From positions 2,666,001 through 2,730,000 of the forward strand of contig JAYWIR010000030.1 of assembly GCA_036172245.1 (NCBI GenBank): a DNA stretch of 64,000 nt, given 5' to 3'. Of the stretch, positions 14,451 through 64,000 are shown in pieces (the first letter of the stretch is position 1; each line of letters opens with the position of its first letter). The translations under genes were made by a program, and so were the position numbers. Under the pieces are notes generated by a model. That model searched no databases and was not told the DNA's origin. It saw only the letters and a program-made list of their open reading frames with translations. Source of the DNA: Raillietiella orientalis (lineage: Eukaryota).

Positions 14451-14599
14451 TTAGCTGGGAGGCAGGGGATTCATCTTGAGTTCTCTCTCGTCACGTTGGC
14501 CACCCTTCGAAGCTGCAATCCGCGGTGAGCGATGTGGCGGCCCTCCGAAAGGGCAATCCTATCCAACGTCTAAACTAAGCTAAGAGCAAGATCTGATGT

Positions 14600-15050
14600 C
14601 CCAGAACTGTTCCGAGAAACGAACAAAGAGTACGGTACAAAACTTTCAAAAGATCTGCAGCGGACTCGCGGATTCTAAAGCGTTGGACTCCAGAGAAGAG
14701 ATATTCCTAAAATGCGGAGAAGGCACCTCGAAAATCGAGTCCAACTGCGCACACATTTTGAAGATGCAGCCTAGCATTATGTAGGAAGATGGACAATGTA
14801 AACGTGTGCTCCGAAACGCCATCAAAAGGAAGACAACTTTGAACGTAAACTGAGCTCCGCGCATTCCTTCGTTTTCCAGGTACAAAGTATTCCTGAAGAC
14901 ACTTCTTCACGACATGTTGAAAACATCGCAATGTTTCGGAGTTGGTTTGCAGCGAGGGGCGATTCGCCTGTCTCACACGCAGCTCACGCCGTGCTTTCAG
15001 GTGTTGTCTTGACATCACTCCAGTACTGATTGGCACTCCAACGAGTCTCC
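14600..15050 (-). mobile_element. Degraded NeSL/Utopia RT fragment
   Basis: LPFDGVSEHTFTL...VCAVGLDFRGAFS matches the GFLPFDGVLEHNF...DF.AF RT motifs of the other copies. Confidence 0.7.
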
Positions 15051-21559: not shown

Positions 21560-24500
21560 CCAAATGTTTCATGGACGCTGACTGCTGCCTATGGGAGTGC
21601 ATCCTTACCCCACTCCCCCTCCTTTATCCGATTGAAGGTTGCCATGGGTGCTCGGTCGCCTCCACGCAAGCGGAGCGCTGCTCCAGCATTAAGCGCCACT
21701 TAAACCGCATTCATGGCATCATAGTAATTGGCATACTCCCATCCCCATACCTGCCCCGACAGTACATGTATGCAGAAAATCTGCTATCTCACTTCCACCT
21801 GGTGTTTGCAGACTCAAGATTAGATGTCAGATGTGCCCTAACAGCTTCTTTTGAAGGACCTGTTGAAAAGGCACGTGCAGGTAGTGCATAAGGAGCGGAA
21901 CAATCACTCCTTTGACAACACCGATGAATACGACGAACCACCCTGCATGCAACCTGAATTTGCCTCTTGCATTCCGCCTGCCGCGCCTTCCTGCAACTCC
22001 TGTTCTGGCAGCACTCCCTCCACGCCCAGTCTCTCACGCGCTGCGCCATCCACGAACACTTCCAGCAGCTCTGTCCTAACGATTCAGTCCCCCTCACAGA
22101 CGGACTTTGCCATGCTTGCTGAAGCCGTACATGCACGTATGCTCCTTGGAAACCCAGTGCAACCCATACCTGAGAAGGTTCTCAGCAGCATGAGAAGCAA
22201 AGGGTCTTGAGCTGGGAGGCTGAGGGCCCCTTCCGATAAAGATGCGACGAGAGGCACTGCTACTCATTCCCTTACAGGCGAGGCTCCCCAAGACCCACCT
22301 CATTCACATGTAAAGCATTTGGCCCAACTAGGCATTTACCTCCAACGTGACGCTCCTCCAATCTCTGAGGCCTACGTGAGGGACGTTTCCTCTAGACTGG
22401 GCTCCAATGCAGCCCTCCTCTGCATGAGCGACAAGTGTTGAGCCCCTGCAACTCGGTGGCAGTTCCTGTGTCCTGACTTGGCCTTGGCTTCCCCCCCGGA
22501 ACTTAGCAGTAGATGACCCTCCTAGTGACTTGTCTCTTATCAAAGGGTGGATGCTGCTTGTACTTTCTCCGATGCCCAAGCACACGAGATGCCTAGTGCG
22601 CGGATATAACTGCGAATCGAACACTGGGTATGCTAGCAAGACTCTTCAATCTCTGAAGAACACATGCTGTAAGTGCATAAGCAACACATTGCCGGCCACT
22701 CCCTGGTATGCGGCCGTTGCCTCTGACCGATTTCCCTCTCCACACACTTGTACCGCTGTGCGAGAATGGCCGAGGGCCCTACACTCTTCGAAGCCTTCTT
22801 GGATACCCTGCTCTCTCGTCCAGTACTTTCTCTCCTTTCCATGCGACACTGGACTGAGAAACTACCATAGATGGCATCACAAAATAAGGCGACAATACTC
22901 GAGGCGCAACTTCACGCCTACTGCGACTGTCACCGCTCTTTCGGACAGTTTCCCTCTTGCAACCTTCCCTGTGGATGAGGTGACCCACTACAGCAGACAG
23001 CTCCGGACGGAGCAACTTAACCTCATCCGCTTCGTGGACGGATGCTGGGCTTCCTCTGCATTCCCCACCTGAACATAATGGAACCGGGGCTGTCCGCGCC
23101 CTGACACCTCGAGTCAGGTGAGGGAAGAAGAATACCCCTTTGCGATCAAGATCTGGCAGACTGCCCCCAGTGAGGAAAGAGTTCTTTCGCAGTTGCTCCG
23201 AACACATATCAAACGTGGACATTATGCGTGAGCTCGATGGAATTTCTCTCCTCCTTCCAGGGATTGATACATGGGAGAAAAACCTCCTTACTCTGGGTGA
23301 CTTCAAAGCGCAAATACATGCTGAGATGCCCAAGTCTCTCCGTCACCTACGCCTTTCTGGTCCGACCTCGACTCAGAGAGGAAGGTTCGGTTGTACCCAT
23401 CTAAACTTCCTATATAGGGTGAATCGTAGCAGGACGACTCGAGAAATTCTTTAGCTCCACAAGGATCGGTGTGCTGTTGGCCTGGACACTATACACGAAC
23501 ACTTCACGGCCCTACACTCCCCCAAATCATTTGATGGCTCCTCCCTGGACTTTCTTCACTCCCTCAGACTGAGACCCTTGAACTCCACCCTTTTATGCCT
23601 GAAGAGGTGCTCCAATGCCCCTCCTGAGGGAACATCCTACTGGGGAGGATCGCATTTTATATGCCACACTCCTCCGCGCGGATCCACAATGTGCGATACT
23701 GACAAGACTTTTCAACACTTTCTTGGCCTATCCACGCTTTCCCGAGGAATGGAAAGACAGCTTTTCCGTCCTGATTCCAAAGAAAGCTGGACCAAACGGA
23801 GGGAATATCGGAGACTTGCGTCCCATCGCGATTGGTAACACGATGAGCAAAGTGTTTGCAAAGTGACTCGCGAGAAGACTACATGGATCCATAATGCGGC
23901 ACTCAGTGATCAGCCTGCGCCAGAAGGGCTTCCTTCCTTTCGATGGTGTTCTAGAGAGAATTTTACGCTTTCCACCTTCATTGACTTCATCGACTTGGCT
24001 TAGTTACCTGGTTGGCTTGGTAGTGTGCAGAGTGTGCTTGCATAAAAAAATATACTTGTGGTGTGTGATTTCTTATTCCTAGATGTGCAGTTGATGCGCT
24101 CTTGTCCGCGCGCCGTCCCGGCGTCGCGCTGACTCGCCCATGCGATTACTGGACAGGCGCGCGCGTCCGTATGCGCGCGGAGCGCCTTCGCTCTCCCTTC
24201 GCTCCAGTGGCTCGCGGTCGCATTGTTTCCCACGTCTTTTGCGCGGCGCCGCAGTTGGGCCGATGGCTTGGCGCTGGAATCGTTCCTCCCCTGAAAGCAA
24301 ACTGAACGGTCAACGCGAAACGTGGCTCCGGGTTCCGGGAGGGTCACGCCGCGCACCGAATCGCGCGCGGTTTCCGCGCGATGAAGTGCCGAACCTCGGA
24401 GCAGTGGCTCGCGGGAGCGTTGTTTCCCGCGCCATTCGGACCGCACCGAACCCGGACCGATGGCTTTGCGCTCAAGTCCTTCCTACCCTGAAAGCAAACT

Positions 24501-25930
24501 GAACGGCCAACGCGAATCCGGGATGCAGGTCACGGGAGCTCCACGCCGCGTCCCCATATAGGCTTTCGTTCGCACCTTCATTGACAACGCCCGCCTCCAT
24601 TGAAAGAGCTTTTGCATAGCATGGCTTGACTTTAAAGATGCTTTCTCCTCTCTTCCTCTTGAATACTTCCTTGCCTTCCTGGCTAAGGCGGGTGAGCATT
24701 TCACGAGTATCATACGGGATCTGTACACGGACTCTGTGACCTCGTTCAGGTATGGGACCAGGGCATCTGCGCAGGTAAAAATACGCGCCGGCGTTCGACA
24801 AGGATGCCCTTTGAGTAGGTTGTTGTTCAATCTTGCCTTAGAACTCATCCTTCGACACCTTTCGGACGTGTGTCCTGGGTGCGTCACATTAGTATAGGCG
24901 GATGACATGCCCTCATATGCGAGTCTTCTCCAATCCTCCAAAGCGCCATTGACGCTGTATCGGAGTCTTTTGCCCTCTCCGGGCTGGTGATATATCCTAC
25001 GAAATGCAGCACGCTTCAACTCTCACGAGCGCCCTGTCGGCACGCGACCGACTTTCTTCAAGGCTGGTGAAATTCCAATTCCCACGCTCGAAGAAACGAG
25101 TGTTTATTGGTAATTGGGGAAGCCGATGAGCTTGTACGCCTTGAAATTCGATGCGGATGAGACTGATGTTCTTGAGGCGCTTTAAAATATCGTCTTTTCT
25201 TTCCTGACTCGCTGGCAGAAATTACATCCTTTCAAGGTATTCTGCTTCCCAACAGAGGCACATGCCCTAAGGCTGGGACACAAACCCCTAGCCTTTTGGA
25301 AAAAACTTGATAAGATTGTGAAAGACGTCATCAAGCCAGACATTCTCTCCCTCCACCAAGCTGCGTCACTGGAATACCTATACACCGCCTCCATGACGAA
25401 TGGAATGGGATGCCAAGTCATGATGGAGGAATCCTCCATCATGACTGTAGACTCAGACTACAAGCAAAGGTGAGCCACGACCCGATGGAGGCTGATCTTG
25501 CCTTGAACTCGCTCCGTGAAGTAGTCTCTCCATCAGTTCGTTGCCCTTTCGCCAATCTGCCCCTTGCGCGATTTCTCAACATGGAATCCTCTCATCCCTT
25601 GGGTCTCCCCTGAGGCGATCTGCGAATCTTCTGATCTTCCGTGAGAGCTGCCTCTAAACGATTACCCATGACGTGGGTGGTGTAGGACAATGACGTTGAA
25701 CTCCTGGCTGGCGAGAAAAGACACTCAAAATACCAGAGACAAGTCGCTCATACGCGACGCAATGTGAAAAGACACGGCGGCATGGACTCCCTCTTGCAGA
25801 AACTGGACCAAGGGCGCATTCTGGACTGCGCCTCCCTTCACACCGCTTCCACTGGGTTCCAGCAGAGGTGCGAAATGTTGAGATTGTGGGACTGGAGGTT
25901 TATTCATTGCGCCTGACTTAATGCTGGCCG
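21560..25930 (+). mobile_element. Near full-length degraded NeSL/Utopia element (lineage B), interrupted at 23986-24572
   Basis: Contains ZnF remnants (IKRHLNRIH, LKRHVQVVH), RT motifs (LRPIAIGN, QKGFLPFDGV, WLDFKDAF, GVRQGCPLS) and post-RT motifs, with many stops and frameshifts. Confidence 0.85.
23986..24572. repeat. Inserted U2-spacer segment flanked by a 13-bp target-site duplication
   Basis: CACCTTCATTGAC occurs at 23973-23985 and 24573-24585. The interior matches 63640-64000 (reverse complement) and 55100-55150. Confidence 0.85.
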
Positions 25931-25949
25931 ACCCGACCGTTGTCATCAA

Positions 25950-28032
25950 ACCGCACGCCCTTCACAGCAGCGTCGACGGGAGCTCCTGGAGCGCACGGGC
26001 TTCCCACCCTCCCTTCTAACCTACCTGCGCTCTTGCTGGCGCAGTGCCATCATAAACGTTTCTTTCAGCAGTCAAAATGTGTATGGCGTGCCGGTGCGGC
26101 GGGGCATAAGTCAGGGCGATAGTCTGAGTCCCCTGCTCTTTAGCACCTACTTTGAGTTGGTACTGAGAGCGTATAGGGTGACTTTGGCCCCCTTGCCGAG
26201 CTCGTGCCCCGGCACGCCCGCCGTAGCAGCGTATGCCGACGATCTTCTGCTCTTGTTGCCCATGTCCACCCCGGCGAAGGCGGTCGGAGACTTCTTCGAT
26301 CTGCTCAGCCGCGGGACCGGACTTCGGGTGAACAAGGCAAAGTCGTCGGTGGTGCCAGTTGGTGCGGCGTGGGCTGGGCAGCAGGACTGGGTCCGTTTGG
26401 GGATCCCCACGGCCAGGTGCTTGAAGTACCTTGGCGTTCCGTTGGGGGACTATTCCCCTTCGGATGCGTGGTCCGGCTGCCTCCAAAAAGTGGAAACGGA
26501 GATCGGCCCGTTCCTGGAAGACAAGTTTCTCCTTCCGGAACGGGCCGCGGTATGGAACGCGTTCGCGGCTCCCATCCTCCGCCCCCTGCTTTTTGTTTGC
26601 CCCGTCCTTCGGGAGTTGAAGAAACGGACGAAGGACCTCCTGAGAATTGCCCTTTGGGGAAGAGGGAGGCCCCGAGTCCCGTTGAAGGACTTGTGTGCTC
26701 CACGTCGGGATGGCGGTCTCGGCCTCTTGACGTTGGAGCGAGTAGAGATTCAGCTGCGATGGCGCACCCTCGCCATAGCAGCGAAGTTATGGAGCACCCC
26801 ATGGTGCGTTCTGGCCCGACTCCTTGCCAGCCGTGTATCCGGGACGGAGGGTCTCGCGTCTTATCTTCTGTGCCGTGGCTCGAAGATCAAGAGATGCGGA
26901 CTTCTCCTGGGACGCATGGCAACTCTGGCTAAGGAAAACGGCTGGATGGTATGCAGCTCCGCCAACTCCTCCGCATGGTTGGAGGAAACAGCTCGCACGT
27001 GGGCGAAGATAAATGAGAGCAATCAAGAGATGTGGAACTGCCTGCGACGCGGCGCCTACTCCCGCTGCACTCTGCGGAAGATACTTCAGTGTCCCGCGAG
27101 AAGCACGTGGGCAGAGACAACCTCCCTAGCTACGGCGTTGCCCTTCCTGAGGAGGGCGCTCTCCAGCAGCCGCGAGTCTAGGTGGCAAGTCTCCTGCCGC
27201 ATCGCAGGCAGGGAGAAGTTGATGAGCGGCTGGTCCATGGGGAAACTGGCGGACGCCACTACCCCTAGTGTCCAGCCGAGAGGACTTTTGAGATGGGGCG
27301 AGCTGCTCGGCATCCAGACGGATGACCTGAAGTGGCCCCCGGTACTCATTGGCTCAAGGATCCTCCCCCTGAAGTGGCAGGAGTCGGCGCTTCTGTTGTT
27401 ACATTGGAGCCTGCCCTGCAACGCACGCCGTCACCACTGGACTAGGGGTCGAGTAGATCCTGCCTGCATCAGGTGTGGGGAGCGGGAAACCCTCCCCCAC
27501 CTTCTTGTTGATTGTGCTGCCCTCCGACCCCTGTGGGAACGTCTTCGTGCCTCCCTACGGATCCAGGAGGGCAGCCAGCCCAGAGACGTTTTTCGGCTTC
27601 TGTTCGTGCAGGATGCCCTGCGACCAGCCGCTGCCCTGGCTGCACTTTGCTGCGTACGCGGGATTGTGACGTGCTGGAGCGACGTCAGAAGACCGAGCCA
27701 CGACAGGGATGCCGTCGTACTTGCAGTCTGCTACCTGCGGATTGCGACCAGATGGCCCCACCTGGGAATCATACGGACAGACCTCGAGGGCATCCTGCAA
27801 AGGATGGACTCTCCTCCCAGTGGTCAGTGATCCCTCCCCAACCCTCCAAAATCTTTTTGTTTTTTATGTTTTATTTTTCTTTTTGTTTTTCCCCCCATCC
27901 CCTTCCGCTGCCGAGGAGTCGCGCCGGTCTGCGTACCGGCAACCCGGCAGGTCCTGTTGAGTTGGCCGTAGTGGGGCCTCGCACCACGAATTATAGAGAA
28001 TTTATAGTAAATGCCCCGGCGTGACCGGGTGG
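25950..28032 (+). mobile_element. L1/Tx1-clade retrotransposon, 5'-truncated, with an open RT C-half to CCHC ORF (26079-27830)
   Basis: The 583-aa ORF contains RGISQGDSLSPLLF, YADD, GLRVNKAKS, KYLGVP, GGLGL and CIRCGERETLPHLLVDC. A T-rich, structured 3' UTR follows. Confidence 0.9.
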
Positions 28033-49009: not shown

Positions 49010-50110
49010 TCAGGTGTAGTCATCTGACCTATTTATCGCGCTCCTAGCGGTCAGGAGGGAGTGCCATTCATCTAGGAACTCGGGTGTTCCTGTGTTGATG
49101 ACATTCCGGCCCTCTAGCGCCCGAATGAGACGCGAAGACAAAAGACAAAGAACTTCATCTTTATTGGGGTGGGTATCCTCCTGCTTTGGGGCAGTGCAAG
49201 TGAGCCCTTTCGACAAAGGTGCACGGTCGGTGGGATGGGGGAGCGACAGGCGACACAGAAGAGGCTACTGCCAGTGATCGCAAGGCCATGCGTCCGTATT
49301 GAGTGGCGCTTGATGTTCCTGCGGCTTTCGGGCTCAGGGGGGGGGATTGAGCAGCCACGTCACCCATCGATCGGGCATCCAATTGGGAGCGGCATGTTCG
49401 ATCTTGCTGTGGTCTCCTTGATATCGCACGAACCGGGATTAGATTCAGGCTTGCTGTGTGGATGAACCGAAAGTCAGCGAATCGCAAGTATTCGCCTTTC
49501 TTATTAAAGTAGCTGGAGACTCGACGGAGTCCAACGCAACGAATAGCTTTCCGTTGATCGGGATGCTTATTTATCAGGGAATGTCATGCCGCTTCTCGCT
49601 GGTGACTCCAGATTGTCGAAGTCACCTTTTTTCTCTGTGTGAATTCAATAGTCACATCAGAAACGGAGATCTTGGGGTCACCGTCGACCCAGTTCCACTT
49701 TTCGGACAACCTCTGCGAGGTTTCCCTTCCTACCTTCCAAAGACATTTAATGTCACCCCCTTCTCGCTTGAATTTCCCTCCTTGTTCTGAGGCAAGGTAT
49801 TTTCCTAAATCGTCATACGTTTGAGGAGAGAGGGTTCTTTTCAAGACAACATCTTGTATAGAGGATAATGCCAATTTCTTCACTTCGGCATCAGGTGAAG
49901 TAAGAAGTTTAAAATAGGAATCCAATGTAAAATTATCCGCTTCATCAGATAGTTTCATCATTCTCAGGCAGTCCTTCTTTCCCTCACCATAAATGTATCC
50001 ATTGGCGGCTCTGGGAGGTAGATGAAGCATTTCTTTCATCATTCTTCTGATTTCCTTATCGAAGAACGACCAATCACCTTTTCGATGCTTTCCGTATCTG
50101 ATCAGATGTT
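49010..50110 (-). mobile_element. Utopia lineage A 3' fragment
   Basis: LHLPPRAANGYIYG..LSDEAD..FKLLTSPD..DLGKYL and RFADFRFIH. Confidence 0.8.
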
Positions 50111-51085
50111 CCCTTTAAGGCGGGTCGGATGGATAAATCGGCAATCACAGAACCTGAGGTAGTCGCACCGCTGCAGGAAGCTTGCTGATGCCGGGTGCCA
50201 GCATACGTAATCCATGACACGGCCTTGGTCAGGCTTCTGCAGGAGTGCTTCCATCTTTCGGTGCCTCAGGGTAGCACGAATGGAGCGGGCGATCTGCCTT
50301 CGCTGGCAACGGGTGAGGCGTTTCTCACCAAGCAGCCCATACCTCCGTACATGGAAGCCGTATATAGGTATTCCAAGGAGTCGGACTGGTGCCGCGATAG
50401 GATGTGCGTTTTCACCAAGGCTTTCAGCATGTCTAGCGGATTCCAGAATTTCAAGGGTTTATGCCCTGAGCGGGGGAGTGTGTGAGGGCGGGGAAGAAGA
50501 AAACTTCAAGGGCATCCCGTTTCTGCCAAGGGGTCAGAGGGGAATCCATCATTCTCTGGAGGGAGTCAAGGATATGTGCCTATCCGGCATCCAATTCGAG
50601 GGCATAGAAGACCACCGGCTTCCCAAGGCAGGAGTAGACACCTGAATCCTCCACTACGGGAATGGGGACGTTGCACACCCGAAAGGTTGTGGACCGACTG
50701 CCAGCCGGGCGCTGATGAACCAAATGAAAGGGTCCGCACTTGTTTGGGTTCATTCGCAAGCCACCTTTCGTCGACGCGGAATAAAACACATCCAGAGCAC
50801 GTTGTAGGGATTGAAGGGACTCACAGACAAGCGCTACGTCATCCGCGTATGCGATGTGTCTGTCTCGCATACGCAAACATCCGCAGTCTGGGCACCGGTT
50901 AGGGAGGGTAGACAGGATGGGTTCCAATGCCAGGTTGAACACGAGGCCGCTCAGAGGGCAGCCCTGTCTAACACCTGCTCGGATAGCTACCGGTTCTGTT
51001 GCCCCACTCGGCCCTCTAAAGATGGTCACGGATCCATCGTAAAGGTCGCGTATGAGGTCAGTGAAGTGTTCACCCAGCCTAGCGC
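50110..51085 (-). mobile_element. NeSL/Utopia lineage B RT fragment
   Basis: GVRQGCPLSGLVFNLALEP, YADDVAL and LGKPVVFYALE. Confidence 0.8.
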
Positions 51086-51664
51086 GGGAAAGTGGCTAAA
51101 TGCTCTGCAACTATGTCAATGTAGTGGAGTGCATCAGCACGTAGGTAGAGGGCCAGGGCTACGACTGATTGAAGAAAGAGAACAGCACAATCAGGCGTGT
51201 ATGGAAGGCAGGTGAGACTTGGCAGCTGCTAATCCGGACCTAGGAACCTAGGAGCGCCAGGCGCAGAGAACACAACCACACGAGTTAAGTGTAGACTGCG
51301 GGAAGGGCAGCTTCAACGAAGCGCCTCCGTAGAGCCCTCTTGGGTTATACCCCAAGGGAGCGAAGACCACTCCAAGCAGTGGAGCAGATCTGGATCGTTG
51401 CTGGCAAGTAGTGGGAGAGGTACGTCCACAAGCACGTATTTACGGATGGCAACCTCCTTAAGTTAGTCCGTATGTGGTGAACGCGCTACCACCGTAGGCC
51501 AACCAAGTGGCAAAGTGGTGAACGCTGTGCGTCAAATTGCCAACTCGATTTTCCTTGAGTTCCACAAGGGGTGGGGTAAATTTATTTTTCTTAATTTTCA
51601 TTCACGTTTCGTTCTCCTTCACATAGTTTAAAGCACTGATTTCTCACTTGGAAATCCTTTGGGG

Positions 51665-54044
51665 TGTCTCATCAGGAGATGAGGGGAGCTTAAAGCAACT
51701 ATCGACGATGAAGGTGTCCGCTTCATCAGATAGTCGCATCAGCGCCATACACCCCATCTTCCTCTCACCATAAAGGAATTCATTCGCTGCTCTTGAAGGG
51801 AGATGCAAAATTTCCTTTATACTTTGTATTTCCCGACCTACATGCTTCCAATCTCGTTTCTGAAGGGTGCCCAAACGTTGAAAATGTACTAAGCTTGGGA
51901 AGTAGAACGTTCTGATGGCATCCATCTTTTGCCAAGTCGAGAGGTCAGATTCAAGAATCTTAACCGCCTTGGCTACCACTTCTTCCTTGGTTGGAATACA
52001 GGGGAACACCTGTATTCCGAATGGCTTCCCCAGATATTTATACGCTTCTGGGAGCGTAAGATCGGGAACAACTCCGTCGTCAATTTTCAAAGCAATGCTT
52101 CTTGTTCCATTCGGTGTACTCTCGGAATAGGACAAAGTCGCACACTTGTCAGCGTTGATCTTGAGACCTGATCGCTGGATTAATGACTTGAAATGTTCAA
52201 ACTTCTGAATGAGGTCTTTCTCCGAATTGGCCATAATTGCCAAATCGTCGGCATAGGCCAGTAAAGAACTCTCACCATATGATTCCCGCAATACACGGAG
52301 AAGTGGTTCCATGGCGATAATAAAGAGCAGAGAGCTCAGGGGACATCCTTGCTTTACCCCTCGACGAAGAATAAAAGGTCTTGTGGACGTGGTTTCCAGT
52401 TGGATATACGTGGAGCTATCCTGATAAAGATCTTTAACCAGCTCCACAAAAGTGCTACGAACATTGACATTAGGCAACGTTTTCATTAACATGTGACTCA
52501 ATGAACCAAACGCATTGGCTAAGTCCACAAAAACAACACTAAAACCCTTAGAGGATCTCCTACCATGATCAAGACACGTTTGTAGAACAAAATTGTGTTC
52601 TAAAACGCCATCGAAGGAAAGAAATCCTTTTTTCTGGGGACATATCACTTGATTTTCGAGAATCCAGTCCCGCAGACGATCAGCCGAGCATTTGGCATAG
52701 AGACGATAACTGGCGTTATCAATAGAAATTGGACGCCAGTCAGACATGTTCAATGAAGAGGGATGGCTCTTCGGTATGAAAACCGTACGCGTGCATTTCC
52801 ACGATGATGGAATTTTCTTATACTTTAGCAGGTTGTTAAAGATGGCAGTCAACAACTCTGCTTCAGGGTCTATTGTCTTCCATCCTGAATAGGTAATTCC
52901 ATCCAGACCTGGTGAAGAGTTCTCTGCTTTTTTCAACCAAGAAGCCACTTCCTCTTGAGCAAAAGGGGACAATTCTAAGGGAGCAACTTGCATGCTTCTC
53001 CCTCGAAGAATATTTCCCGGCAGATTGCAATCAATCGTCGGGGATGATTCTAATTCTTCATGAAAGTGCTTCTCAACCTTCCCGGCATCAATCTGGCAAT
53101 GAGATTCTGCCTACCCTCAAGTTGATCGGAACGCCCTCTGCCGGTTCATGCGATACATTCTCTGTATCTCAGACATATTATTTGCCGTGACCCTAATGTG
53201 GACTAATTTTCAGAATCTTTCGAATCTTCTCGACCAATTCTTCAAAGGCTTATTGAAGTTGAACCATTCAATAATGTCCGACTTCAAGTATCCGGAGAAG
53301 GCCTTCCTGTCCACCTCGAATTGTTCGCTAATTTCAGTTAAGTTAACTCGGTTTCTTGACGTTCGAGTAGGGGCATCAGTAGTGTGAGCCTCTTCAATTG
53401 CTTCAACAATATTGTGTAATCCTTGTTCTTCTCCAGACTCAGATTCTATAATCCTTGCTTCTTCAATTACAGGGAATAGAGGAGCATCGCACCAGATCCT
53501 AAGATCCATGGGTTGCTCATCCACTATCCCAGAATGTGTAATATCTTCCAAGTTGACCTCCTCCAAGGCTTCCCTCATGATTTCAGCAACGTTTTCAAAG
53601 AAGGCTACTCCTAGCTCATCATCCTCTTCAATTACGCTGACTTGAATAGGGCTAGGAGTTGCTTGTACAACTTGTTCACCTCCTGAGGGACCAACACAAA
53701 CAGGAGAAAGAGATCGTGTTCTCCTATCCACCCGAACATGCCAGATTTGGTGGTTCAGCAATCCCCTTCTTAAGGAGAACGCCATTCCACACTCTGGGTT
53801 GTTGCAGAAAAACCTCATCGGTACTTCCGCCACAGGTGGACGAGGGGGGGAATCGGTTCGTTCTTGCTCAGCGCTAACATTGGCGCAACGATGGTCCGAG
53901 GGCCTCTGGATACAATTGCTTCCGAACATAGTCGGCACTTGTATACCAATCGATCCACCTCAAATTCATGGATACTTCTAAAATGCCTTTTGCGAGAGTG
54001 GATCTGTTGGTGGACAACAGCTGTTCTCGTTGATCAAATTGTTG
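51665..54044 (-). mobile_element. Utopia element (lineage A) joined to a U2 5' fragment, ZnF plus complete RT, 3' end missing
   Basis: ZnF CNNPECG..RRGLLNHQIWH (53210-53938) and a 449-aa RT ORF (WRPIS, GFLSFDGV, DLANAFGS, GVKQGCPLS, YADD, YKYLG). The element starts immediately after U2 nt 33. Confidence 0.9.
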
Positions 54045-54077
54045 ACTTTGATCTTAGCCAAAAGGCCGAGAAGCGAT
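54045..54077 (-). pseudogene. U2 snRNA 5' fragment (nt 1-33)
   Basis: The reverse complement reads ATCGCTTCTCGGCCTTTTGGCTAAGATCAAAGT, the canonical U2 5' end. Confidence 0.95.
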
Positions 54078-56110
54078 AGCTTGGGAAGCTGCGGAAGATC
54101 GGTACTTCTCGGAAGATGCGTCCTCCTCACAGTGCAGGACCGCCCGGCCCCCGGTTGCGGCGCGACGGCGCTCCCGCGGGGATGCGCTCGCGCGCTCGCA
54201 CGCGGGCCTCCGCTGGCGCCTGGCTTTTCCAGTGGAGGGGCGGCACCTGACCAAAAGGGGCGGAGTATTCGGAAGCCCTCCCGCGCACCGGTTGGCGCAG
54301 CGCTTCCGCGCGGGGGAGGCGCGTCCCCTTTCGCGCAACCCTTCCCCGCTTCTCGCGCCCCGAAATGGCAGGCGAAGCTGGCATCCGCCCGCAGAGGAAA
54401 TCTGGCTAGAGGATCTCTGCGAGCGTTTCCCGTTGGACTGCAGTCACGGAACGCGACTTCCAGTCGAATTGGTTTCGCACGCGATCGCCCTCGCTCGCGA
54501 ACCCAGGGCGTCCGAACGCTCGGCCGCACCGGCATCCGAAACTGGAGTAAAAGGTGGGAGCGGTTGGGACGACCGGAGCAAACTGGAAATGAAACAGCGG
54601 ATCCCGCGCATGCGCGGCGGCCGTTCGGAAGCTCCTGTGGGTAAGGAGGGGAACTGCGGAACGAACATGACCGCAAGCGCGGCAGCCGGCCGTTCGCCTG
54701 CAGCAAGTCACGGAGGCGTCTTTGCGCGGGAACGACGGCGAGGATGTCGTACAAAGGGAAAACGAAGAAAAAACTCCGAAACGGAGCCACAGTAGAGGGA
54801 GGACGCCAGCGCGCCATAAGCGTCATTACGCGCCGCGCGAGCGCTTTTTCCGACGCACGCCGGAGGGGATGGCGCGGGGACGCCAAACGACGGCGGATCG
54901 GTCGAAGAAAGGCGCCATGTGCGCGTCGGACGCTCAACGGGGAAAGCCGAGAAGAGGGCGGGAAGGCGGCGAACCGTGCTTGCCGCGAGGGAAAGCGCGG
55001 CGGACGGGGTTCCCGCCATCTCCAGGAGAGCTGCGTAAGCGACCGGGGTGTGCCGCTCCTTCGCGAGAGGGTGCAGCGCGCAGCGCCCACCGGGAGGTCG
55101 GGATGCAGGTCCCGTGAGCTCCACGTCGCGTCCCCATATAGGCTTTCCTTCGCGCGGTTCGCGTCGGTGTCTCCGAGCAGTGATTCGCTCTCCGCTTTTC
55201 GCCTGCGTGCCGCCTCCTTTGCCGCGATTTCCAGGAAGATTCCCAGCAGGCGTGGTCGAGCCTCCAAAAGCGAGCTAAACAGTCAACCTGGAATCCGACT
55301 CTGAGCCCCGGGTGGGCAGGGGGGGGGCAAACCTTTGTCGAGCCCTGTTGCGCGCGGGACCTGCATTTTCCTCCGTGTAGTGGCCGTCAGCGGCATTGTA
55401 TCCCTCGGCGCCCGCCGCTCGCCCGGACCGGGAGCATCTGTCTTGGTCTGCTTGGTTCACGCGAGGAAAGCAAACTGAAAGGTCAACGCGAAATTGCTGA
55501 CCGGTCTCCGGATAGGCGACGGGGAGCATTTCATCCCGCGCTCGGTCTCACGTGCCGCCCTTGCGCCACTCCGAGCAGTGGTTCGCTGGTACTCGGTCCG
55601 CCGTGCTGCGCGCCTCCCGTCGGGAGCGAGCGGATCGCTTGGCCAGGACGTCGTAGGGTATCGGAAAGCTAACTGAACGGCCAACGCGGAATCGGCTATG
55701 AGGCACCGGGAGGTCTTCGCAGCGCGTCCGTTGGTGCGTCAGCAGAAAGCAAACGGAACGCTCGAAGCGAGAGCGAACGGAGGCGTACCTTGGGCAAGCA
55801 GAAACGAGAGAATTCAGGGGAATATGAGCGCGTATGTCTTCTGGCCTATTACCGTCCACGATGGAAACCCATCCCGGAATCGATCGCTGTCCCCGTGGTT
55901 GATGTTTTCGATGCTTTTAGTTTGCGTTTTCTCTTTTGCCGCGCCCCTGAAGGGATTACCTGAACTATTCAGCAGTCTGCGTAGCAGCGTCGACGGACGG
56001 AACCTGCAGAGATCCGCCGGAGCGAACCATGCCGAAGACGAGCCACCGAATGGCTCCGCCGGGCGAAAAATTCGTCTCACTTTGCGTTCCGCTTTTCGGT
56101 CCTCCCGTGT
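54078..56110 (-). repeat. GC-rich U2 tandem-array intergenic spacer containing ~197-bp subrepeats
   Basis: It lies between a U2 3' end and the next U2 5' end on the same strand. It is homologous to 59235-60590, 62875-64000 and 24080-24572. Confidence 0.85.
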
Positions 56111-56114
56111 TGAG

Positions 56115-56265
56115 GGGTAGTGGGCGGATCCCGTAGGTACTGCAATACCGGGTCAACCCGCGACAGGAGAGCAGCAAGCTCCAAGCATCCCGTCCACTTC
56201 CAAAAATTTAATATACTGGCCACCAGATAGGTGGCGTATCAGATATTAAGCTGATAAGAACAGAT
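56115..56265 (-). pseudogene. U2 snRNA 3' portion, well preserved
   Basis: The reverse complement reads ATCTGTTCTTATCAGCTTAATATCTGATACG...AAATTTTTGGA (Sm site)...GGTATTGCAGTACC (stem-loop IV). Confidence 0.95.
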
Positions 56266-59235
56266 TTTTTTTTATTAAGAAAATACAAACATAGTACAAA
56301 TTTGCAGAATAATTTTGCCGTATCTCCTTCTTAATCTCTCCTGGCTCATGTAAAAAGGGCCATTTAATGGGGTTTCCCATTATCCAACGTTGCATGTAGA
56401 GCATCACCAGGTGGGTACCCTGAGCGATGCGTCCAGTAGATGTCCCTGCTGTATTTCATAGTACTTGCAATGATTAATTTTGTCATGGTGTCAGAGTACC
56501 GACGGGGAATTTTCAGTTCTTTCAATACTGCATCATTTCTGGGATCCCATGAACCAAGAGAGCCAACCAAGAAGGCGCGGGCTTCTGCGCTGCATCCAAT
56601 CCTCCTAAAATATTGAACGATGTCTTGGTACTTGTCTTCCTTCTCACTTCTTGTTGTAGTAAAGGACTCTTCCGTCTTTTCAAACGGACAGGAAACATCC
56701 AAGACAACAACGGAATTAGCCTTTTGTAAAACTAAGTCCGGACGCAGCGAGCTTCCACTTCCTCTTATGGGCTGATTTGCTGTGAAGAGCTGCCATCCAG
56801 CCACTTTCTCCGCAGCTTTACATAATCTCCTTACAATTTCATCATGTCGGGCAGTATACAGACGAGAGTGCCTCATGCAGTGGTTGAGTACATGAGGCAA
56901 GGTCTCATCGTATAGAGTGCACCTTCTGCAGCTTCTCTCCGCAGGTCTTCTCTTCCCTCCCCTAATCGATGGAAGATTTAGTCGTGCTGCATGAATAAAT
57001 CGGTAGTCGGCAAAACGCAAGTACTCCCCATTATTGATAAAAAAACTTGATGCACGATGCAGACCGACTCATCGCATGGCTTTCCCTTGATCAGGATGCA
57101 AATTAATAAGGTCTAGCCATGCCTGATGTATCTGTGCATCGCGAATCGCAGCAGTGAATCTTCGGCGCATTACAGAATTAAATGACAGGTCTCCTACATG
57201 GAGCTTGACTTCTTGATCTTCAAAACTCTAAGTTGCATGTATCCGGGAAGAAGCTTGGCGACCTGTTGTCCAGATTCTCTTAATATCGCCAGAAGATCTT
57301 GAGAATTTGTCAGAACAGTCACCACTCATAAATCTTGCCAAGTCTTCGGTGGGTAGTTGCAGAATTTTCTTCTTCACTACCTCACGTAAGGAATTCTTGG
57401 CAAGATGGGAGACTGACTGATCATGGGATGAAAGCAACTTGAAGCAGCTGTCTATAATGAAGGTGTCCCCTTCATCCGAAAGCCGCATCAATGCCAAACA
57501 TCCCATCTTCCTGTCACCGTATAGATACTCATTTGCAGCTCTCGCTGGAAGATGTAATATTTCTTTAATAATCTTTCGTATTTCCCGATCGACAAACTTC
57601 CACTCTTGTTTTTGATGGGTGCCCAGCCTTTGAAAATGAACAAGGCTCGGAAAATAAAAAGTTCGGAGGGCATCCATTTTTTGCCAAGGCGAAAGGCCAG
57701 AGTTTAAGATCTGGCTTGCTTTGGCAACCATTTCCTCCTTTGAAGGGATATTGGGGAATACTTGAATTCCAAATGGTTTCCCCAAGTAACGGCAGGCTTC
57801 AGCTAATGTCAAATCAGGAACAATTTGATCTTCAACATGGAGCTGTAAACTTCGGCATCCCTTCGGTGTTTTCCCGGAGTACAGCAATGACGCACACTTA
57901 TTTGCATTGATCTGTAGACCTGCTCTTTTAATGAGAGTTTTAAAGTGATCAAATCTTTGAATTATTTCTTCCTTAGAGTTAGCCATTACTGCCAAGTCGT
58001 CAGCATAGGCTAACAGGGAACCTTCTCCATAGAGTTCCCTCATTTCACGCAGAAGAGGCTCCATAGCTAAAATAAAAAGCAAAGAACTTAAAGGGCAACC
58101 CTATTTCACTCCTCTTCGCAGAATGAAAGGTCTTGTTGTAGAATTATCCAATTGTATATATGTGGAGCTATCCTGGTAAAGTTCTTTTACCAGCTCCAAA
58201 AACTTCGCGCCAACGTTGATTCTCTCCAACGTGTGAATCAACATATGATGACTCAACGAACCAAATGCATTGGCGAGGTCAATAAAAACCACGCCAAAAT
58301 CTTTGGAACATCTTCTGGCCTGGTCTAAACAAGTTTGCAAAGCAAAATTGTGTTCTAGTACACCATCAAATGGCAGGATTCCTTTTTGCTGCGGACGTAT
58401 TACTTGATATTCTACAATCCAGTCCCGCAGACGACCAGCCAGACATTTCGAGTACAGGCGAGAGATGGCGTTACCAATTGATATCGGACGCCAATCCGTT
58501 ATATTCATAGATGTCGAGTCACGTTTTGGAATCAATACGGTTCGCGTACACTTCCACGAAGATATTATTTTCTTGTGTTTTAACAGGTTGTTAAAGATGG
58601 ACGTAAACAACTCTGCCTCAGGGTCTACCCTCTTCCACCCTTAGTAAGTTATACCGTCGAGGCCAGGGAATGAGTTCTCTGCTTTTCTTAGCCAAGAGGC
58701 CACCTCTTCTTGAGTGAAAGCAGACAGTTCTAAAGGAGAAACTTGAGAGTTTATCGCTAGAAGTATATTCCCCGTCAAATTACATTCTATCGTAGGGGAT
58801 GACTCCAGTTCTAGTTGAAAATGCTCCTCGACCTTCACAGCGTCGATTTGGCGGTGTGTTTCCATCTGTCCCAAGATTGATCAGAACGAGCTCCAGCGAT
58901 TTCTACGATACAAGCATTGTATCTTCCATTTATTTTGCGGGTCCACTTGCTTAGGTTTACTATGACCTTTTGGTGGATTAATCTTTAAAATCTTCTGTAC
59001 TTTCTTCACCAACTCTTCGAAAGCATTATTGAAGTCGGACCATTCCATAATATCCGATTTCAAGTAACCAGAAAAGGCCTTCCTGTCTTCTTCGAATTGA
59101 TCACTAATCTCAGTGTGTTGAAGACGTTTTCTAGATTGTCGTCTAGCAACATCGGAAATATGCGTCTCATCAGGGACCTGAGCAATATTGTTTGCTTGTT
59201 CTTCTTCAGATTCAATTGGTCTTTGCTCATGACCT
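56266..59235 (-). mobile_element. Utopia element (lineage A), RT-CCHC-RLE with intact 3' junction, inactivated by stops
   Basis: The RT is split by stops at 58641, 58101 and 57228. CRRC..ETLPHVLNHC, RHD and LRPDLV..LDVSCPFE..KEDKY are present. The 3' UTR ends in AATAAAAAAAAA joined to U2 TCTGTTCTT. Confidence 0.93.
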
Positions 59236-60591
59236 AGTCGAATGGGTTTCGCACGCGATCGCACTGGCTAGCGAATCCCGGCCTATCGGTGGGCGCTGCG
59301 CTTCCTTTCCTCTAGCGGACGAGCGACGAAACTCTTTCCGCCTACGCAGCTAGACGGGAGATGGCAGGCACGCCGTACGCCGCGCTTTCCCTCGCGGCAG
59401 GCGCGGTTCGCCGCCTTCCCGCCCTTTTATCGGCATTTGTCGTGGACCGTCCGACGCGCAGACGGCGCTTTTGTTGGGCCATCTGCCGCCGTTCGGCGCC
59501 CGCGCACCCTGGCTTTCGGCGTGCGTCGGAGAAACTGCTCGCAAGGCGCGCTGCGCGGGAGGACGCGGATGGCGCGCGCGCGTCGTGGCGAGACGGGGTC
59601 CCTGTTTCGTCGTTTTTTTTTTTTTCTTCTTCGTTTTATGTTTGCACGGAATCCTCGCCGTCGTTTTGATGCGAAAAGACGCTTCCGTGGCTGGCTGCAG
59701 GCGAACGGCCGGCTGCCGCGCTTGCGGTCAAGTTAGTTCCGCCGTTCCCCTCCTTATCCTCGGGAGCTTCCGAACGGCCGCAGCGCAACGGCGGCAAACG
59801 CTGCTGCATCTCCAGTTCGCCCCGGTCGACACAAACGCTCCCGCCTCCGCCTGGCCACTCGTATGCCGGTGCGGCGGAACGTTCGGACGCCCGGGGTTCG
59901 GGAGCGAGGGCAATCGCGTGCAAAACGCATTCGACTGGAAGGCGGGTTCCGTGACTGCAGCCCTACGAACAACGCACGCAGCCATCATCCTCTTGCCAGC
60001 TTTCCTCTCCGCGCGCATGCCAGCTTCCGCGCCTGCGATTTCGGGGCGCGGGAAGCGGGGAAGGGTGGCGCGGAAGGGGACGCGCCTCCCCAGCGCGGTT
60101 TCGCTGCGCTAATAAGTGCGCGGGAGCGCTCCCGAACGCTCCGCCCCTTTCGGTCACGTTCCGCCCCTTCTTCGGAACAGCCCGCCGCCAGCGGAGGCCA
60201 GCGTGCGAGCGCGAAGCGCATCCCCATGGGAGCGCCGTCGACTAACGAACGCGAAGGCGCCGCTTCCGGCTCAGCGCGACACGCGTGCAGGATGCATTCC
60301 GTGCAGCCATCTAGCCGAATGCGCGTCCACCACGCTCGTCTTCCGCGAGATGGCGCGCACGACGCGGCGTGCCTCGGGCGATCGAGGTCCTCGTCTCGCA
60401 CGCGCGGACGGTCCCGCCGCACCGCCCCGCGGGCGCCGCAGCACTGAGCTCGGGAAGTCCAGACGGCGCGTCGCGCGAGCTCGCCGGGCACGTGGGCGCG
60501 CTGCCGCGCCGCAACCGTGTGCCGGGCGGTCCAGCACTGCGCGGAGCACGCATCTTGAGAGAATTACCGATCTTCCGCAGCTTCCCAAGCT
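59235..60591 (+). repeat. GC-rich U2 upstream spacer, inverted homologue of 54078-55040
   Basis: It aligns in reverse complement to 54078-55040 and carries an extra ~250 bp near 60240-60490. Confidence 0.85.
60530..60591 (+). promoter_or_regulatory. Candidate U2 promoter/PSE region
   Basis: GAG.ACGCATCTT..GAGAA.TACCGATCTTCCGCAGCTTCCCAAGCT is shared immediately upstream of both U2 5' ends. The position fits an snRNA PSE, but the motif itself is not identified. Confidence 0.55.
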
Positions 60592-60627
60592 ATGGCTTCT
60601 CGGCCTTTTGGCTAAGATCAAAGTGTA
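60592..60627 (+). pseudogene. U2 snRNA 5' fragment (nt 1-36)
   Basis: ATGGCTTCTCGGCCTTTTGGCTAAGATCAAAGTGTA is followed by unrelated sequence. Confidence 0.95.
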
Positions 60628-60829
60628 AGTTTTACTGTGCTTTGGTCGGTCATTTGGCCAAGGGCGCTCAAATCGATTACAGCCAATGGCTGTGAACGAT
60701 ACTCCATACGTATCTCCATTCTTATTCTTCGTTTGACCTTATATAAAAATCTGTTCGATCTCATCATCCTGCACAATCCAATGTACGGGAAGTCTGCGCG
60801 TGGATTTCCGCACACGGGATTAAAAGCTT

Positions 60830-62870
60830 GTCGGATCTCCGCCAGGATTGTCGAAGGGGGGACTAAGATCACCATTAAGATAACTTGCTAGGACATTCGA
60901 TGGGGCCACGCGTGTTTTACGCGAGACTACGTCTCGGAGCGTGTTCAAGGCAAGGTCAGCCACCATGCGATCTGGGCTCGTAAGCAGCTTGTACGCCAAG
61001 TCGATCGTCATAATTCCGCTTTACTCTTGAAGGATCATGCAATTCATTCCACCGGACATTTGGGACGTATATAAATATTCTAAGGATGCTGCCTGGGGGA
61101 GCGTTAGAATCTTGATCTTTATCGCATCCTTGACGATCTTGTCCAGTTTCTTCCAGAACGCCAGGGGCTTCTGCCCAAGTCGCAACGCGTGCGTTAGGGC
61201 AGGAAAGAAAAAGGTTTTAATAGCGAAAAGTTTCTGCCACGGGAGAAGGGGACACTCCAGGAGCTTCTGGAAGGAGAGTATAATGTTGTCCTCATCAGCG
61301 TCGTTTTCCATCGCATAAAAACCAATGGGTTTTCCCAGATAACGATAGGTTCTTGTTTCTTCCAGGGCAGGCATTGGCGCTTGAGAAACATAAAACCTGG
61401 TGGGACGTGCGCCGGACGGGCGGGTATGGGAAATTTGAAGCGAGCCACATTTGCTTGGATTGCTCGTCAGGCCGCAGCGGGCGGCAGCCTGATGAAGAGT
61501 GTCAATCGCTTTCTGCAGGGTTTGGGGAGATTCACTTATCAGTGCGACATCGTCCGCGTATGCGAGTGTCACACAGCTGGGAACAGAGGCTGCGAGTAGC
61601 CTCAGTATGGGTTCTAATGCAAGGTTAAAAAGAAGCCCGCTGAGTGGACAACCTTGCCTGACACCCGCTCGTATGAGGACCGGTTCGGACGTTCCTTTCT
61701 CTCCGCGAAAGATAGTAGCGGACTCCTCATATAATTCCTTTATCAGGTTGGTGAATTGTTCACCAACGCCACAGTGTATCAAGGAGTCGAACAGGTATTC
61801 GTGCGGAACAGACGAGAACGCATCCTTAAAATCTACCCACTCCACACATATATCCTTGCGATGTCTGCGTGCTTCCTCAATAAACGTATTGAGTGTAAAA
61901 TTGTTTTCCAGCACACCGTCAAAGGGCAGGAAACCTTTTTGATTGAGGCTGATAATGCCATTACGCATTATCCAGCCTCGTAGCCTCCTAGCAATGCATT
62001 TCGCGAACACTCTCCCCATGGTGTTCGTGATGGCTATGAAGCGAAAGTGTTCGAGGCTCGTCTCCTGGGGATCGGCCTTTTTTGGGATTAGGATGGAAAC
62101 ACTGTTTTTCCATTCCTTTGGGAGCCGTCCGTGAAGTAAACACAGGTTGAAGATCCTGGTCAGCAGGGAGCATTGCGGATCTGCTCGCTGCAGTGCATTA
62201 TAGCATATCCTGTCTTCTCCTGGAGAAGTGTTTTCACAGGAGGCTAAGTTCTGTGCGACCTCTTCAGGGAGGAGAGGGGAGAGGTCCAGGGCGTCTGCAG
62301 GCGGGAAGGGGGGGGTAGTAGCAAGCAATTGAGCATCGAAGCTCTTCACTGCGTGAATGTTTTGGAAGTGCTCGCGAATTTCATTCAAGGGGACCGTGCA
62401 TCGCCCTTTGTTAATCCCTTGTATTTCTCTAACAGCACGCCTACGATTCGTTCGGTAAATGTTCTGTAGGCGCACGCGGCCGGTTTATTCGCTTTACCCT
62501 TATGGCCGGAGGGATTTTTGTTGGGGTTACGTGAACGAGTTCTCTGCACATGTATCCGGGAGCGAAATTCCTGTAAGACAAGCAGTGTCTTCTCCCAAGT
62601 ATCGAGGTTAGGAGTTAGCTTTGCGATATCCTCGAGTTCCCGTATCAAATCGAGGTTCGTGCTGATCGTTTCTCCATGTTCAAAAAAGCTTTCTGCCGCT
62701 GGGTGCACCTCCGATGTGTCTGGCTAGTCCCTGCGATCATGTCGATGAAGGCGGTGAACGGTTAGACTCGATTCTCGGCAAAGATGTTGAAATGTTTCGC
62801 TAGCAAGAAACCTCCTCACCTGTCGTTCCCATGGAAACCATCAGGTGTTACAATTACGACAGGCGAACCT
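60830..62870 (-). mobile_element. NeSL/Utopia lineage B element with an open 484-aa RT ORF, inverted within a U2 locus
   Basis: ORF 61021-62475 has all RT motifs (QKGFLPFDGV, DFKDAFSSV, GVRQGCPLS, YADD, YRYLG). Confidence 0.9.
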
Positions 62871-62874
62871 AACG

Positions 62875-64000
62875 TGGAAGCGGAACGCGAAGCAACACGA
62901 AGTTTTCGCCCGGTGGAGAAGCCTTTCGGTTGCGCGTCTTCGGCATGGTTCGCTACGGCGGATCTCTGCAGTTTCCTTTCTTCGACGCTGCTGCAACGGA
63001 TACTGCTCAATCGTTCAGGCAATCCCACCAGGGGCGCGGCAAAAGAGAAAACGCAAGCCAAAGGAATCGCAAACAAGAACCACGGGGAGAAGGCAATCGA
63101 TCCGGATACGGGTATCCATCGGGGACGGAGATGGGCTGGAGGAGACACGCGCGCATCTTCCCCTGCATTGCCTCGTGTACGCTTGCCCAACGTACGCCGC
63201 CGGGCGGTGTGGCTTCGAGCGTTCCGTTTGCTATCTGCTGACGGTACAAGGGTCGCGCTGGGCATTGCTCGCGGAGCCTCGCAGCCGAATCCGCGTTGGC
63301 CGTTTAGTTTGCTTTGCTAACGCGAACCAAACACACCAGGATAGATGCTCCCGGTCCGGGCGAGCGGTGGGCGGCGCGGGAAACAATGCCGCCGGCCTCC
63401 ACTGCACGGAGGAAAATGCAGGTCCCGCGGGCCATGGAGCGAGCCACCTGTTGGCCCCCCTCCCGCCCGCCCGGGGTTCTAAGCCGAATTCCACGTTGAC
63501 GGTTTAGCTCGCTTTCGGAGGCTCGAGCAGGCCCGATGGAAAGCTTCTTCGGAATCGCAGCGAACGAGGCCGCGCGCAGGCGACAAGCGAAGAGCGAATC
63601 ACTGCTCCGAGGGGCGGACGAGATCCGCGCGAAGGAAAGCCTATACAGGGACGCAACGCGGGTCTCCCGGGAACTGCATCCGGTATTCGCGTTGGCAGTT
63701 CAGTAGGATTTCAGGGTTGGTACGATTTCAGCGCAAAGCCATCGGTCTGGGTTCTGTGCGGTCCGAATGGCACGGGAGACAACGCTCCCGCGAGCCACTG
63801 CTCCGAGGTTCGGCACTTCATCGCGCGGAAACCGGAGCCGCGTTTCGCGTTGGACGTTCAGTTTGCTTTCAGGGGAGCAACGATTCCGGCGCCGAAACGT
63901 CGTCCCAACTGCGGCACCGCGCGAAAGGCGTGGGAAACAATGCGACCGCGCGCCACAGCTCGGGAGAGCGAAAGGGCTTCGCGCGCACCCGAACGCGCGC
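62875..64000 (+). repeat. GC-rich U2 downstream spacer with four subrepeat boxes
   Basis: It is a reverse-complement homologue of 55100-56095 and 24155-24572. Boxes end at 63316, 63516, 63712 and 63870. Confidence 0.85.

Follow-up and report, generated by a model that had tools for sequence, protein, structure and literature searches.

A diverged array of ~197-bp subrepeats with two recurrent boxes in a U2 snRNA gene spacer of Raillietiella orientalis

The intergenic spacers (IGSs) of ribosomal RNA genes (rDNA) are GC-rich and are built from tandem, diverged subrepeats in which short conserved boxes are set in variable linkers and in which unequal exchange occurs. In rRNA gene arrays, subrepeats of this kind, with their conserved boxes, are a classic means of regulation. 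Tandem monomers of ~200 bp are also present, in variable number, in the 5' untranslated regions (UTRs) of mouse L1-type long interspersed nuclear elements (LINEs), where they lie upstream of the open reading frame (ORF). A third relevant system is Utopia, a non-LTR retrotransposon of the restriction-like endonuclease type that targets U2 genes. As described in the passages on Utopia in Kojima & Jurka 2015 (PMC4640811), this element encodes an N-terminal finger, a reverse transcriptase (RT), and a C-terminal finger plus nuclease, and U2 sequence resumes at nt 39; spacer subrepeats find no mention in those passages. Here, we describe an array of ~197-bp units, each bearing two short boxes called box A and box B, that lies between broken genes for the U2 small nuclear RNA (snRNA) of Raillietiella orientalis. 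The DNA analyzed, hereafter the window, is a 64,000-nucleotide stretch of NCBI GenBank assembly GCA_036172245.1 (contig JAYWIR010000030.1, positions 2,666,001 to 2,730,000, forward strand), and all coordinates below count from its first letter. An earlier note made from the letters of the window had drawn attention to the array. The explanation that we prefer, and that we consider on balance somewhat probable, is that the array is a stretch of internal repeats in the spacer that separates the genes of a U2 snRNA cluster and that its boxes would once have been protein-binding sites acting in cis.

Units and boxes of the array

The array is a run of five or six old, diverged ~197-bp subrepeats. 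Besides nine full units (E 1e-38 to 6e-47), a hidden Markov model (HMM) of the unit recovers a single partial copy of 53 bp; no other hit in the 64-kb window falls below E=1. The nine full units span three loci, 24181-24573, 55098-55894, and 63086-64000, the last of which is inverted, and they align over 197 columns with zero gaps. Paralogous units are 42-55% identical overall, units 1 and 2 reaching 65%, and copies of one unit at different loci are 70-87% identical. Tandem Repeats Finder does not report the array because its units are less than 70% alike.

Every box A site that the earlier note had listed was recovered, namely 24293, 24490, 55266, 55466, and 55664 on the plus strand and 63870, 63712, 63516, and 63316 on the minus strand. 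Specifically, the box A 27-mer has six matches in the window at three or fewer mismatches, and none of 100 dinucleotide shuffles contained any match. A looser scan (nine or fewer mismatches) returned 13 hits: the nine sites just given, two half-boxes at 55745 (plus strand) and 63235 (minus strand), and two unrelated hits at 63053 and 33332. The proposed period of ~197 bp is real. Box A follows box A at 197 bp in the 24-kb locus, at 200 and 198 bp in the 55-kb locus, and at 158, 196, and 200 bp in the 63-kb locus, the 158-bp spacing arising because one 63-kb unit carries a 39-bp deletion. The first 15 nt of box A form the most AT-rich stretch within an array of 62-65% GC that has an observed/expected CpG ratio (CpG o/e) of 1.2-1.4.

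Box B was located with a weight matrix, which scores 19.8-30.6 bits at nine array sites and 10.4 bits at the next-best place in the window. In nine of nine units, the start of box B precedes box A by exactly 96 bp. The constant upstream position claimed for box B is thereby borne out, the "88-90 bp" originally given being this 96-bp offset counted from the GCAGTGG core. From box A to the next box B, the distance is 100-104 bp, or 62 bp in the unit with the 39-bp deletion.

Conservation was expressed as the mean pairwise identity per column in two sets of units, the five paralogous units (set 1) and the four units of the 63-kb locus (set 2, which is not independent of set 1):

Box A: 0.83 in set 1, 0.76 in set 2
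Box B: 0.67 in set 1, 0.68 in set 2
Rest of the unit: 0.42 in set 1, 0.40 in set 2

A 27-column block as conserved as box A was reached by 0 of 2000 column shuffles. The assertion that the linkers diverged while the boxes were conserved agrees with these values, box A standing at 0.83 versus 0.42 for the rest of the unit. When the boxes are judged individually as to whether they are better kept than their surroundings, box A clearly is, and box B is so only weakly.

The U2 spacer and its two copies

The original placement of the array in a U2 spacer stands: on one and the same strand, the array is preceded by a U2 tail and followed by a U2 head. Read along the U2 strand, the order is U2 tail, a flank of ~22 nt, a 200-bp segment called T', the array, a ~1-kb segment called P' that holds the presumed promoter, and the U2 head. 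Some 220 bp separate the 3' end of one U2 from the start of the array, and ~1 kb separates the end of the array from the following promoter. In spacer copy I, the complete minus-strand order is element L2, U2 tail, flank, T', array, P', U2 head, and element L1, where L1 and L2 are retrotransposons to which we return below. The features of copy I are as follows:

56115..56265, minus strand, U2 snRNA tail (~nt 38/39 to the end), directly behind the A-run of the upstream retrotransposon
56093..56114, minus strand, U2 3' flank of ~22 nt, common to the U2 tail at 12 kb (12210-12231)
55895..56094, minus strand, T', 86% identical to 62878-63085
55098..55894, array, U2 sense on the minus strand and boxes read on the plus strand, defined by the box and unit-HMM scans
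55098-55153, tail of unit 2; 55154-55353, unit 3; 55354-55551, unit 4; 55552-55748, unit 5; then a partial sixth unit
55266, 55466, and 55664, box A, with a half-box at 55745; 55170, 55370, and 55568, box B
54078..55104, minus strand, P', 67% GC, reaching up to U2 +1, with the presumed U2 promoter inside
54045..54077, minus strand, U2 head (nt 1 to ~33), with element L1 directly behind it

Spacer copy II reads, in order on the plus strand, P', a U2 head with a degenerate remainder, an antisense fragment of a third element (L3), T', and the array:

59275..60591, plus strand, P', opposite to copy I and with an extra 274 bp
60592..60707, plus strand, U2 head, with the perfect 27-mer at 60595-60621 and then the degenerate remainder
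62878..63085, plus strand, T'
63086..64000, array, U2 sense on the plus strand and boxes read on the minus strand, running off the window into the leader
63316, 63516, 63712, and 63870, box A ends, with a half-box at 63235; 63412, 63612, 63808, and 63966, box B

The order P', U2, T', array is present twice, in opposite orientations, and therefore we read T', the array, and P' as a U2 intergenic spacer and not as a retrotransposon. We are confident of this structural part of the account, that is, of an old tandem duplication inside the U2 spacer. In both spacer copies, the boxes as first written down are antisense to U2. The two P' copies (54078-55104 versus 59275-60591) are 78% identical overall and 86% identical where they adjoin U2 +1. 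The spacer is, moreover, a GC-rich island (55-68% GC) with a CpG o/e of 1.2-1.4, compared to 0.75 in the adjoining LINE bodies. This island spans 54078-56094, 59275-60591, and 62878-64000, and the CpG o/e of the window goes down to 0.3 (at 36-38 kb).

Comparison of the copies reveals how the array has changed. Between the 55-kb and 63-kb copies, the array shows no insertion or deletion (indel) in 626 aligned bp; the counts elsewhere in the spacer are 3 events in 200 bp for T' and 10 in 1017 bp for P', at similar substitution levels, and 3 events in 353 bp separate the 24-kb fragment from the 63-kb array. The copy II unit at 63232-63428 is a hybrid that corresponds to copy I unit 4 upstream of box A and to unit 5 downstream of it. 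Because the two parts are joined in box A, the number of units has changed by exchange within box A. The junction between P' and the array in copy I falls at a box-A-like stretch. In copy II, the last 39 bases of the window still match the leader of the 24-kb fragment, at 85%.

The U2 genes on either side of the spacer are broken. At the gathering threshold, Rfam reports two U2 genes, at 56115-56292 (minus strand) and 12028-12209 (plus strand). In both hits, the first ~36 model positions are not U2, and U2 resumes at TCTGTTC... behind an A-rich run. Both are thus U2 tails, with ~22 nt of common 3' flank, after which they diverge at the same base; at the 56093-56114 flank, homology to the 12-kb locus stops and homology to the 62878 locus starts. 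The pattern of a tail plus a 22-nt flank fits a unit copied from an RNA ending just past the U2 3' end. The U2 heads, found by a permissive Rfam search together with a pattern search, share a perfect 27-mer at 54048-54074 (minus strand) and 60595-60621 (plus strand), where chance would give 0. No U2 copy in the window is whole: each is interrupted at ~nt 33-39 by Utopia-like retrotransposons of the restriction-like endonuclease (RLE) type, and therefore this part of the cluster is dead. Another short piece of U2, at 8522-8563 (minus strand), is an inverted match to 12053-12094.

Several details of the two spacer copies deserve separate mention. In T' of copy I, at 55995-56027 on the minus strand (offsets 68-100 from 56114), there is a box B-like stretch with a GCATTGTTTCCC-type segment, inverted relative to the array. 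This inverted box B/C-like stretch was beaten by 0 of 100 shuffles, yet it is one of 30 comparisons, and we take it as a lead only. In copy II, P' and the U2 head are inverted relative to L2, and the short, rearranged junction piece at 59236-59281, by which they adjoin L2, is a direct copy of 54462-54507; the inverted junction at 59228-60630 could reflect an inversion or a twin-priming-like event. The ~110 bp that follow the copy II U2 head (60630-60765) end in an A-run. Specifically, ~35 bp past 60707, at ~60740-60765, the A-run gives way to a second, brief U2-like piece, which corresponds to ~nt 38 onward and then breaks off into antisense L3. An insertion at the usual U2 site that lost most of its 5' portion may account for this stretch.

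Possible roles of the boxes

The notion is that, while the cluster was active, the boxes would have been sites for one or more sequence-specific DNA-binding proteins, with each unit offering a single two-part site, and would have worked in cis on the U2 units. Taken by itself, protein binding at the boxes is a reasonable if tentative proposal, slightly less likely than not in our estimate. The likeliest role would be that of a repeated barrier, terminator, or insulator between transcription units; the second choice would be an enhancer array in the manner of rDNA spacer subrepeats. The array lies 0.2-1.2 kb past the 3' end of one U2 and 1-2 kb short of the following promoter, and it is this position that suggests such a role. 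Unequal exchange within box A would alter the number of units. After the spacer copies diverged, drift in the boxes would have kept roughly to the local rate, which is what dead copies should show, and a lack of clear constraint since the split fits the broken state of every U2 here.

A bolder version of this proposal, which we rate as unlikely, is that box A together with box B at 96 bp would constitute the recognition site of a dedicated factor that organizes U2 arrays, either as a repeated polar terminator/insulator or as an enhancer module, set between successive RNA polymerase II snRNA genes. If so, the site would be the snRNA-cluster counterpart of rDNA spacer elements. We know of no such element described for arthropod-type snRNA genes.

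A number of observations weigh against a spacer array with protein-binding boxes. Regarding the spacer, the reading draws on two units only, both rearranged: copy I is without the leader, unit 1, and most of unit 2, and in copy II the L3 fragment separates U2 from T'. None of the U2 genes that have this spacer in the window is intact, and downstream of the 12-kb U2 tail the sequence is a different one. An array fragment has, in addition, moved with a target-site duplication (see below), and hence part of the spacer can behave as mobile DNA. Regarding the boxes, the identity of box B (0.67) is one that shuffling can also reach (the maxima average 0.64 and go up to 0.77), and therefore the support for box B is mainly its fixed position. 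In unit 2, box A differs between the spacer copies at 4 of 27 positions versus 22 of 149 for the rest; in unit 3, the counts are 3 of 27 for box A and 2 of 21 for box B versus 40 of 149 for the rest. Since the spacer copies split, the boxes have not clearly changed more slowly than their surroundings. Finally, it is position that would favor a terminator or insulator over an enhancer.

A different explanation is that the array is a neutral tandem repeat of the spacer, a ~197-bp duplication spread by unequal crossing-over that has no sequence-specific function. The boxes would then stand out through exchange or short-tract conversion that re-uses the longest shared stretch, or through chance heterogeneity. 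In line with this explanation, the breakpoint of unit gain and loss lies in box A, a box-A-like stretch marks the P'-array junction of copy I, in unit 2 the divergence of the boxes between the spacer copies is similar to that of the rest, box B by itself falls short of significance, and promoter similarity, an RNA fold, and a 10-bp periodicity were all absent from the searches reported below. Exchange, however, should homogenize whole units and not 27 bp, whereas here the linkers stand at 0.42 and box A at 0.83, a level that none of the 2000 shuffles reached. The 96-bp offset from box B to box A, exact in all nine units despite their divergence, and the persistence of an AT-rich box in a GC- and CpG-rich tract likewise argue against neutrality. 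We consider the neutral explanation somewhat unlikely and retain the proposal of protein-binding boxes in a U2 spacer.

One suggestion in the earlier note was that the array could be a series of small transcription units. Under this scenario, each unit would carry a promoter-like box that yields a short RNA, or the array would be a source of small RNAs. The moved fragment would imply an RNA running across units 1-2, if its duplication marks retroposition, and the spacer is a CpG-rich island, both of which could be reconciled with transcription. The searches nonetheless speak against this scenario. RNAalifold detects no conserved fold in the units on either strand (consensus -1.4 kcal/mol on the plus strand and -2.2 kcal/mol on the minus strand), Rfam assigns no family to the array at E up to 5, and ARAGORN reports 0 tRNA genes. 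Neither box matches the U2 promoter: the box matrices produce no hit above 6 bits in either U2 upstream region, and only 2 of 20 unit-to-promoter alignments attain the 5-in-100 shuffle level, each at 4/100. Across all 30 local alignments (units versus the two promoters and T'), three reached the 5-in-100 level, the third being T', a yield attributable to multiple testing, and the alignments do not exceed shuffles once the 30 tests are allowed for. The suggestion of small transcription units was thus not supported, and we regard an RNA-producing array as highly improbable.

The suggestion of nucleosome phasing also failed to find a signal. Arrays I and II show no 10-bp periodicity of WW/SS dinucleotides (W, A or T; S, G or C), 68-122 of 200 shuffles reaching the observed power; the short 24-kb fragment alone shows WW periodicity (5/200 shuffles). 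The absent 10-bp signal leaves room for translational positioning by bound factors, which may occur.

Other candidate identities were considered and rejected. Box B had a by-eye likeness to a U2 proximal promoter element at -64 to -44, for which matrix scores are below 6 and alignments are not above shuffles. A tRNA or RNA polymerase (Pol) III-type identity was discarded given the zero genes from ARAGORN, and the units are not degenerate copies of U2 or of another snRNA, since Rfam (E up to 5) finds nothing in the arrays. P' does not consist of further degenerate units, since the unit HMM finds none in P'. The sole exact match to box A in a metagenome scan (L001 1016-1038) sits in a bacterial-looking coding contig with no units around it and is taken as chance.

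The remark that no described element could be recognized in the array is borne out. The box A 15-mer was not found printed, Rfam (E up to 5) offers no family for the array, and no report of U2 spacer subrepeats appears among the matches listed. Specifically, the only hits of a literature text search with the box sequences were primer-like ones, to two short strings, and the box A 15-mer had none; among the literature matches listed there is no report of subrepeats in U2 spacers, and we came across nothing similar for clusters of snRNA genes. An insect snRNA promoter study (PMC1761439) contains neither the word "enhancer" nor the word "distal."

The moved fragment, the retrotransposons, and known systems

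A piece of the spacer is present at a third site, the 24-kb locus, where it is flanked by a target-site duplication:

23973..23985, plus strand, left target-site duplication, 13 bp, CACCTTCATTGAC
23986..24573, no strand assigned, transposed fragment of 588 bp, made up of 95 bp of AT-rich sequence, ~125 bp of leader, and units 1-2 (24181-24573)
24293 and 24490, box A
24574..24586, plus strand, right target-site duplication, 13 bp, CACCTTCATTGAC

The 588-bp insert splits a plus-strand, L3-like RT gene between ...TFID and NARLH..., and the duplication is perfect. The leader and units 1-2 are 85-89% identical to copy II, and the 95-bp AT-rich part has no match elsewhere in the window. The insert opens with TTCATCGAC, which is close to a repeat of the TTCATTGAC in which the duplication ends. 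The 24-kb copy represents spacer sequence that has moved here, and retroposition of an RNA is the simplest explanation for the move; no orientation is assigned to it.

This fragment is the main argument for another reading of the array, in which the units would be a mobile element, either the 5' region, of monomer type, of some retrotransposon or a retroposon without coding capacity (T', units, leader, and a short tail) that lands behind U2 genes and elsewhere. The perfect 13-bp duplication around the fragment at 23986-24573, inside an unrelated RT gene, is as such a reading would have it. Moreover, T' starts at the same base at 56094 and at 62878, exactly where the U2-flank homology stops, and both copies outside unit I are antisense to L3-type LINEs. 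The arrangement of the cluster, however, is not that of a free element, which would leave the order P', U2, T', array in two units unexplained. A U2 head and a conserved upstream region lie between the array and the Utopia-like ORFs, and so the array is not the 5' UTR of that element. Pfam finds no domain in the long ORF that crosses P', the moved fragment ends in a 95-bp tail that is unmatched elsewhere in the window, and RT fragments of the L1 and L3 types occur at at least eight other places in the window without units. A mobile element is, in our estimation, quite unlikely, and we continue to view the array as part of the U2 spacer. Two particular assignments were rejected outright. The array is not the 5' UTR of the LINE at 51.6-54 kb, which is ruled out by the U2 heads between P' and the ORFs; nor are the array and T' the sense 5' region of L3, which is truncated at 62877 and whose relatives at 17 and 23 kb have no units.

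Three retrotransposons adjoin or interrupt the spacer copies:

51644..54044, minus strand, L1, Utopia-like RLE-type retrotransposon with a C2H2 ORF at 53210-53959 and an RT ORF at 51644-53110; 3'-truncated
56266..59228, minus strand, L2, second Utopia-like copy, ending in an A-run before the U2 tail; 5' part missing
60923..62877, minus strand, L3, fragment of a related LINE family with an RT ORF at 61021-62484; truncated at both ends, left limit approximate

L2 lacks its own first ~170 codons. The RT ORFs of L1 and L2 share 73% amino acid identity, and the RT of L3 is 37-39% identical to those of L1 and L2. The Pfam domain RVT_1 was found in 6 of the 15 ORFs scanned, the L1/L2-type reverse transcriptase scoring E 4.5e-31. 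In L1, a C2H2 finger is N-terminal (ORF 53210-53959). In L2, the C-terminal ORF at 56364-57068 encodes a CCHC-type finger and a PD..D..K-like nuclease motif, both read by eye and neither with a Pfam hit. Both at 56264 and at 12057 (12-kb locus), TCTGTTCTTATCAG... comes directly after an A-run, which places the U2 junction at ~nt 39. Judged by domain layout and U2 junction, L1 and L2 appear Utopia-like.

The remainder of the window is largely a retrotransposon graveyard with at least three LINE families. At 10805-11071 (plus strand), upstream of the 12-kb U2 tail, a fragment encodes an L1-like C2H2-finger N-terminus (48% amino acid identity). Further RT fragments lie at 49869-51077, 13608-14913, 17113-18423, 23389-25464, and 25917-27830, the last of which contains RVT_1 plus zf-RVT.

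What the array means depends on whether its boxes bind a factor. If they do, they would offer a clue to insulation or coupling among densely packed, very highly transcribed snRNA genes, and they would also provide a marker for the decay of the U2 cluster after invasion by Utopia-type elements. If they bind nothing, the array is an old tandem duplication of an ordinary kind, within a gene cluster that is dead.

Among the known systems, Utopia supplies the neighbors of the array and not the array itself, from which the element is separated by the U2 head and the ~1-kb upstream region. L1 and L2 resemble Utopia in domain layout and in the U2 junction at nt ~39, and tandem occupancy of U2 arrays, too, is described in the passages on Utopia (PMC4640811).

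The 5' UTR monomers of LINEs such as mouse L1 are similar in that ~200-bp tandem units lie upstream of a LINE ORF. They differ in that here the array is set apart from the ORFs of element L1 by a U2 head together with the conserved 1 kb upstream of U2, the units are defined antisense, old, and highly diverged, and the same order recurs beside a different LINE fragment.

The nearest analogue is the rDNA IGS with its enhancer repeats, spacer promoters, and terminator boxes. Unlike those elements, the candidates described here belong to a Pol II snRNA gene and lie in a dead cluster; and unlike subrepeats of the spacer-promoter type, the units show no copy of the gene's own promoter. What the two share is a set of tandem subrepeats in the spacer of an RNA gene, with boxes in variable linkers, a GC-rich tract, and a number of units that changes by exchange.

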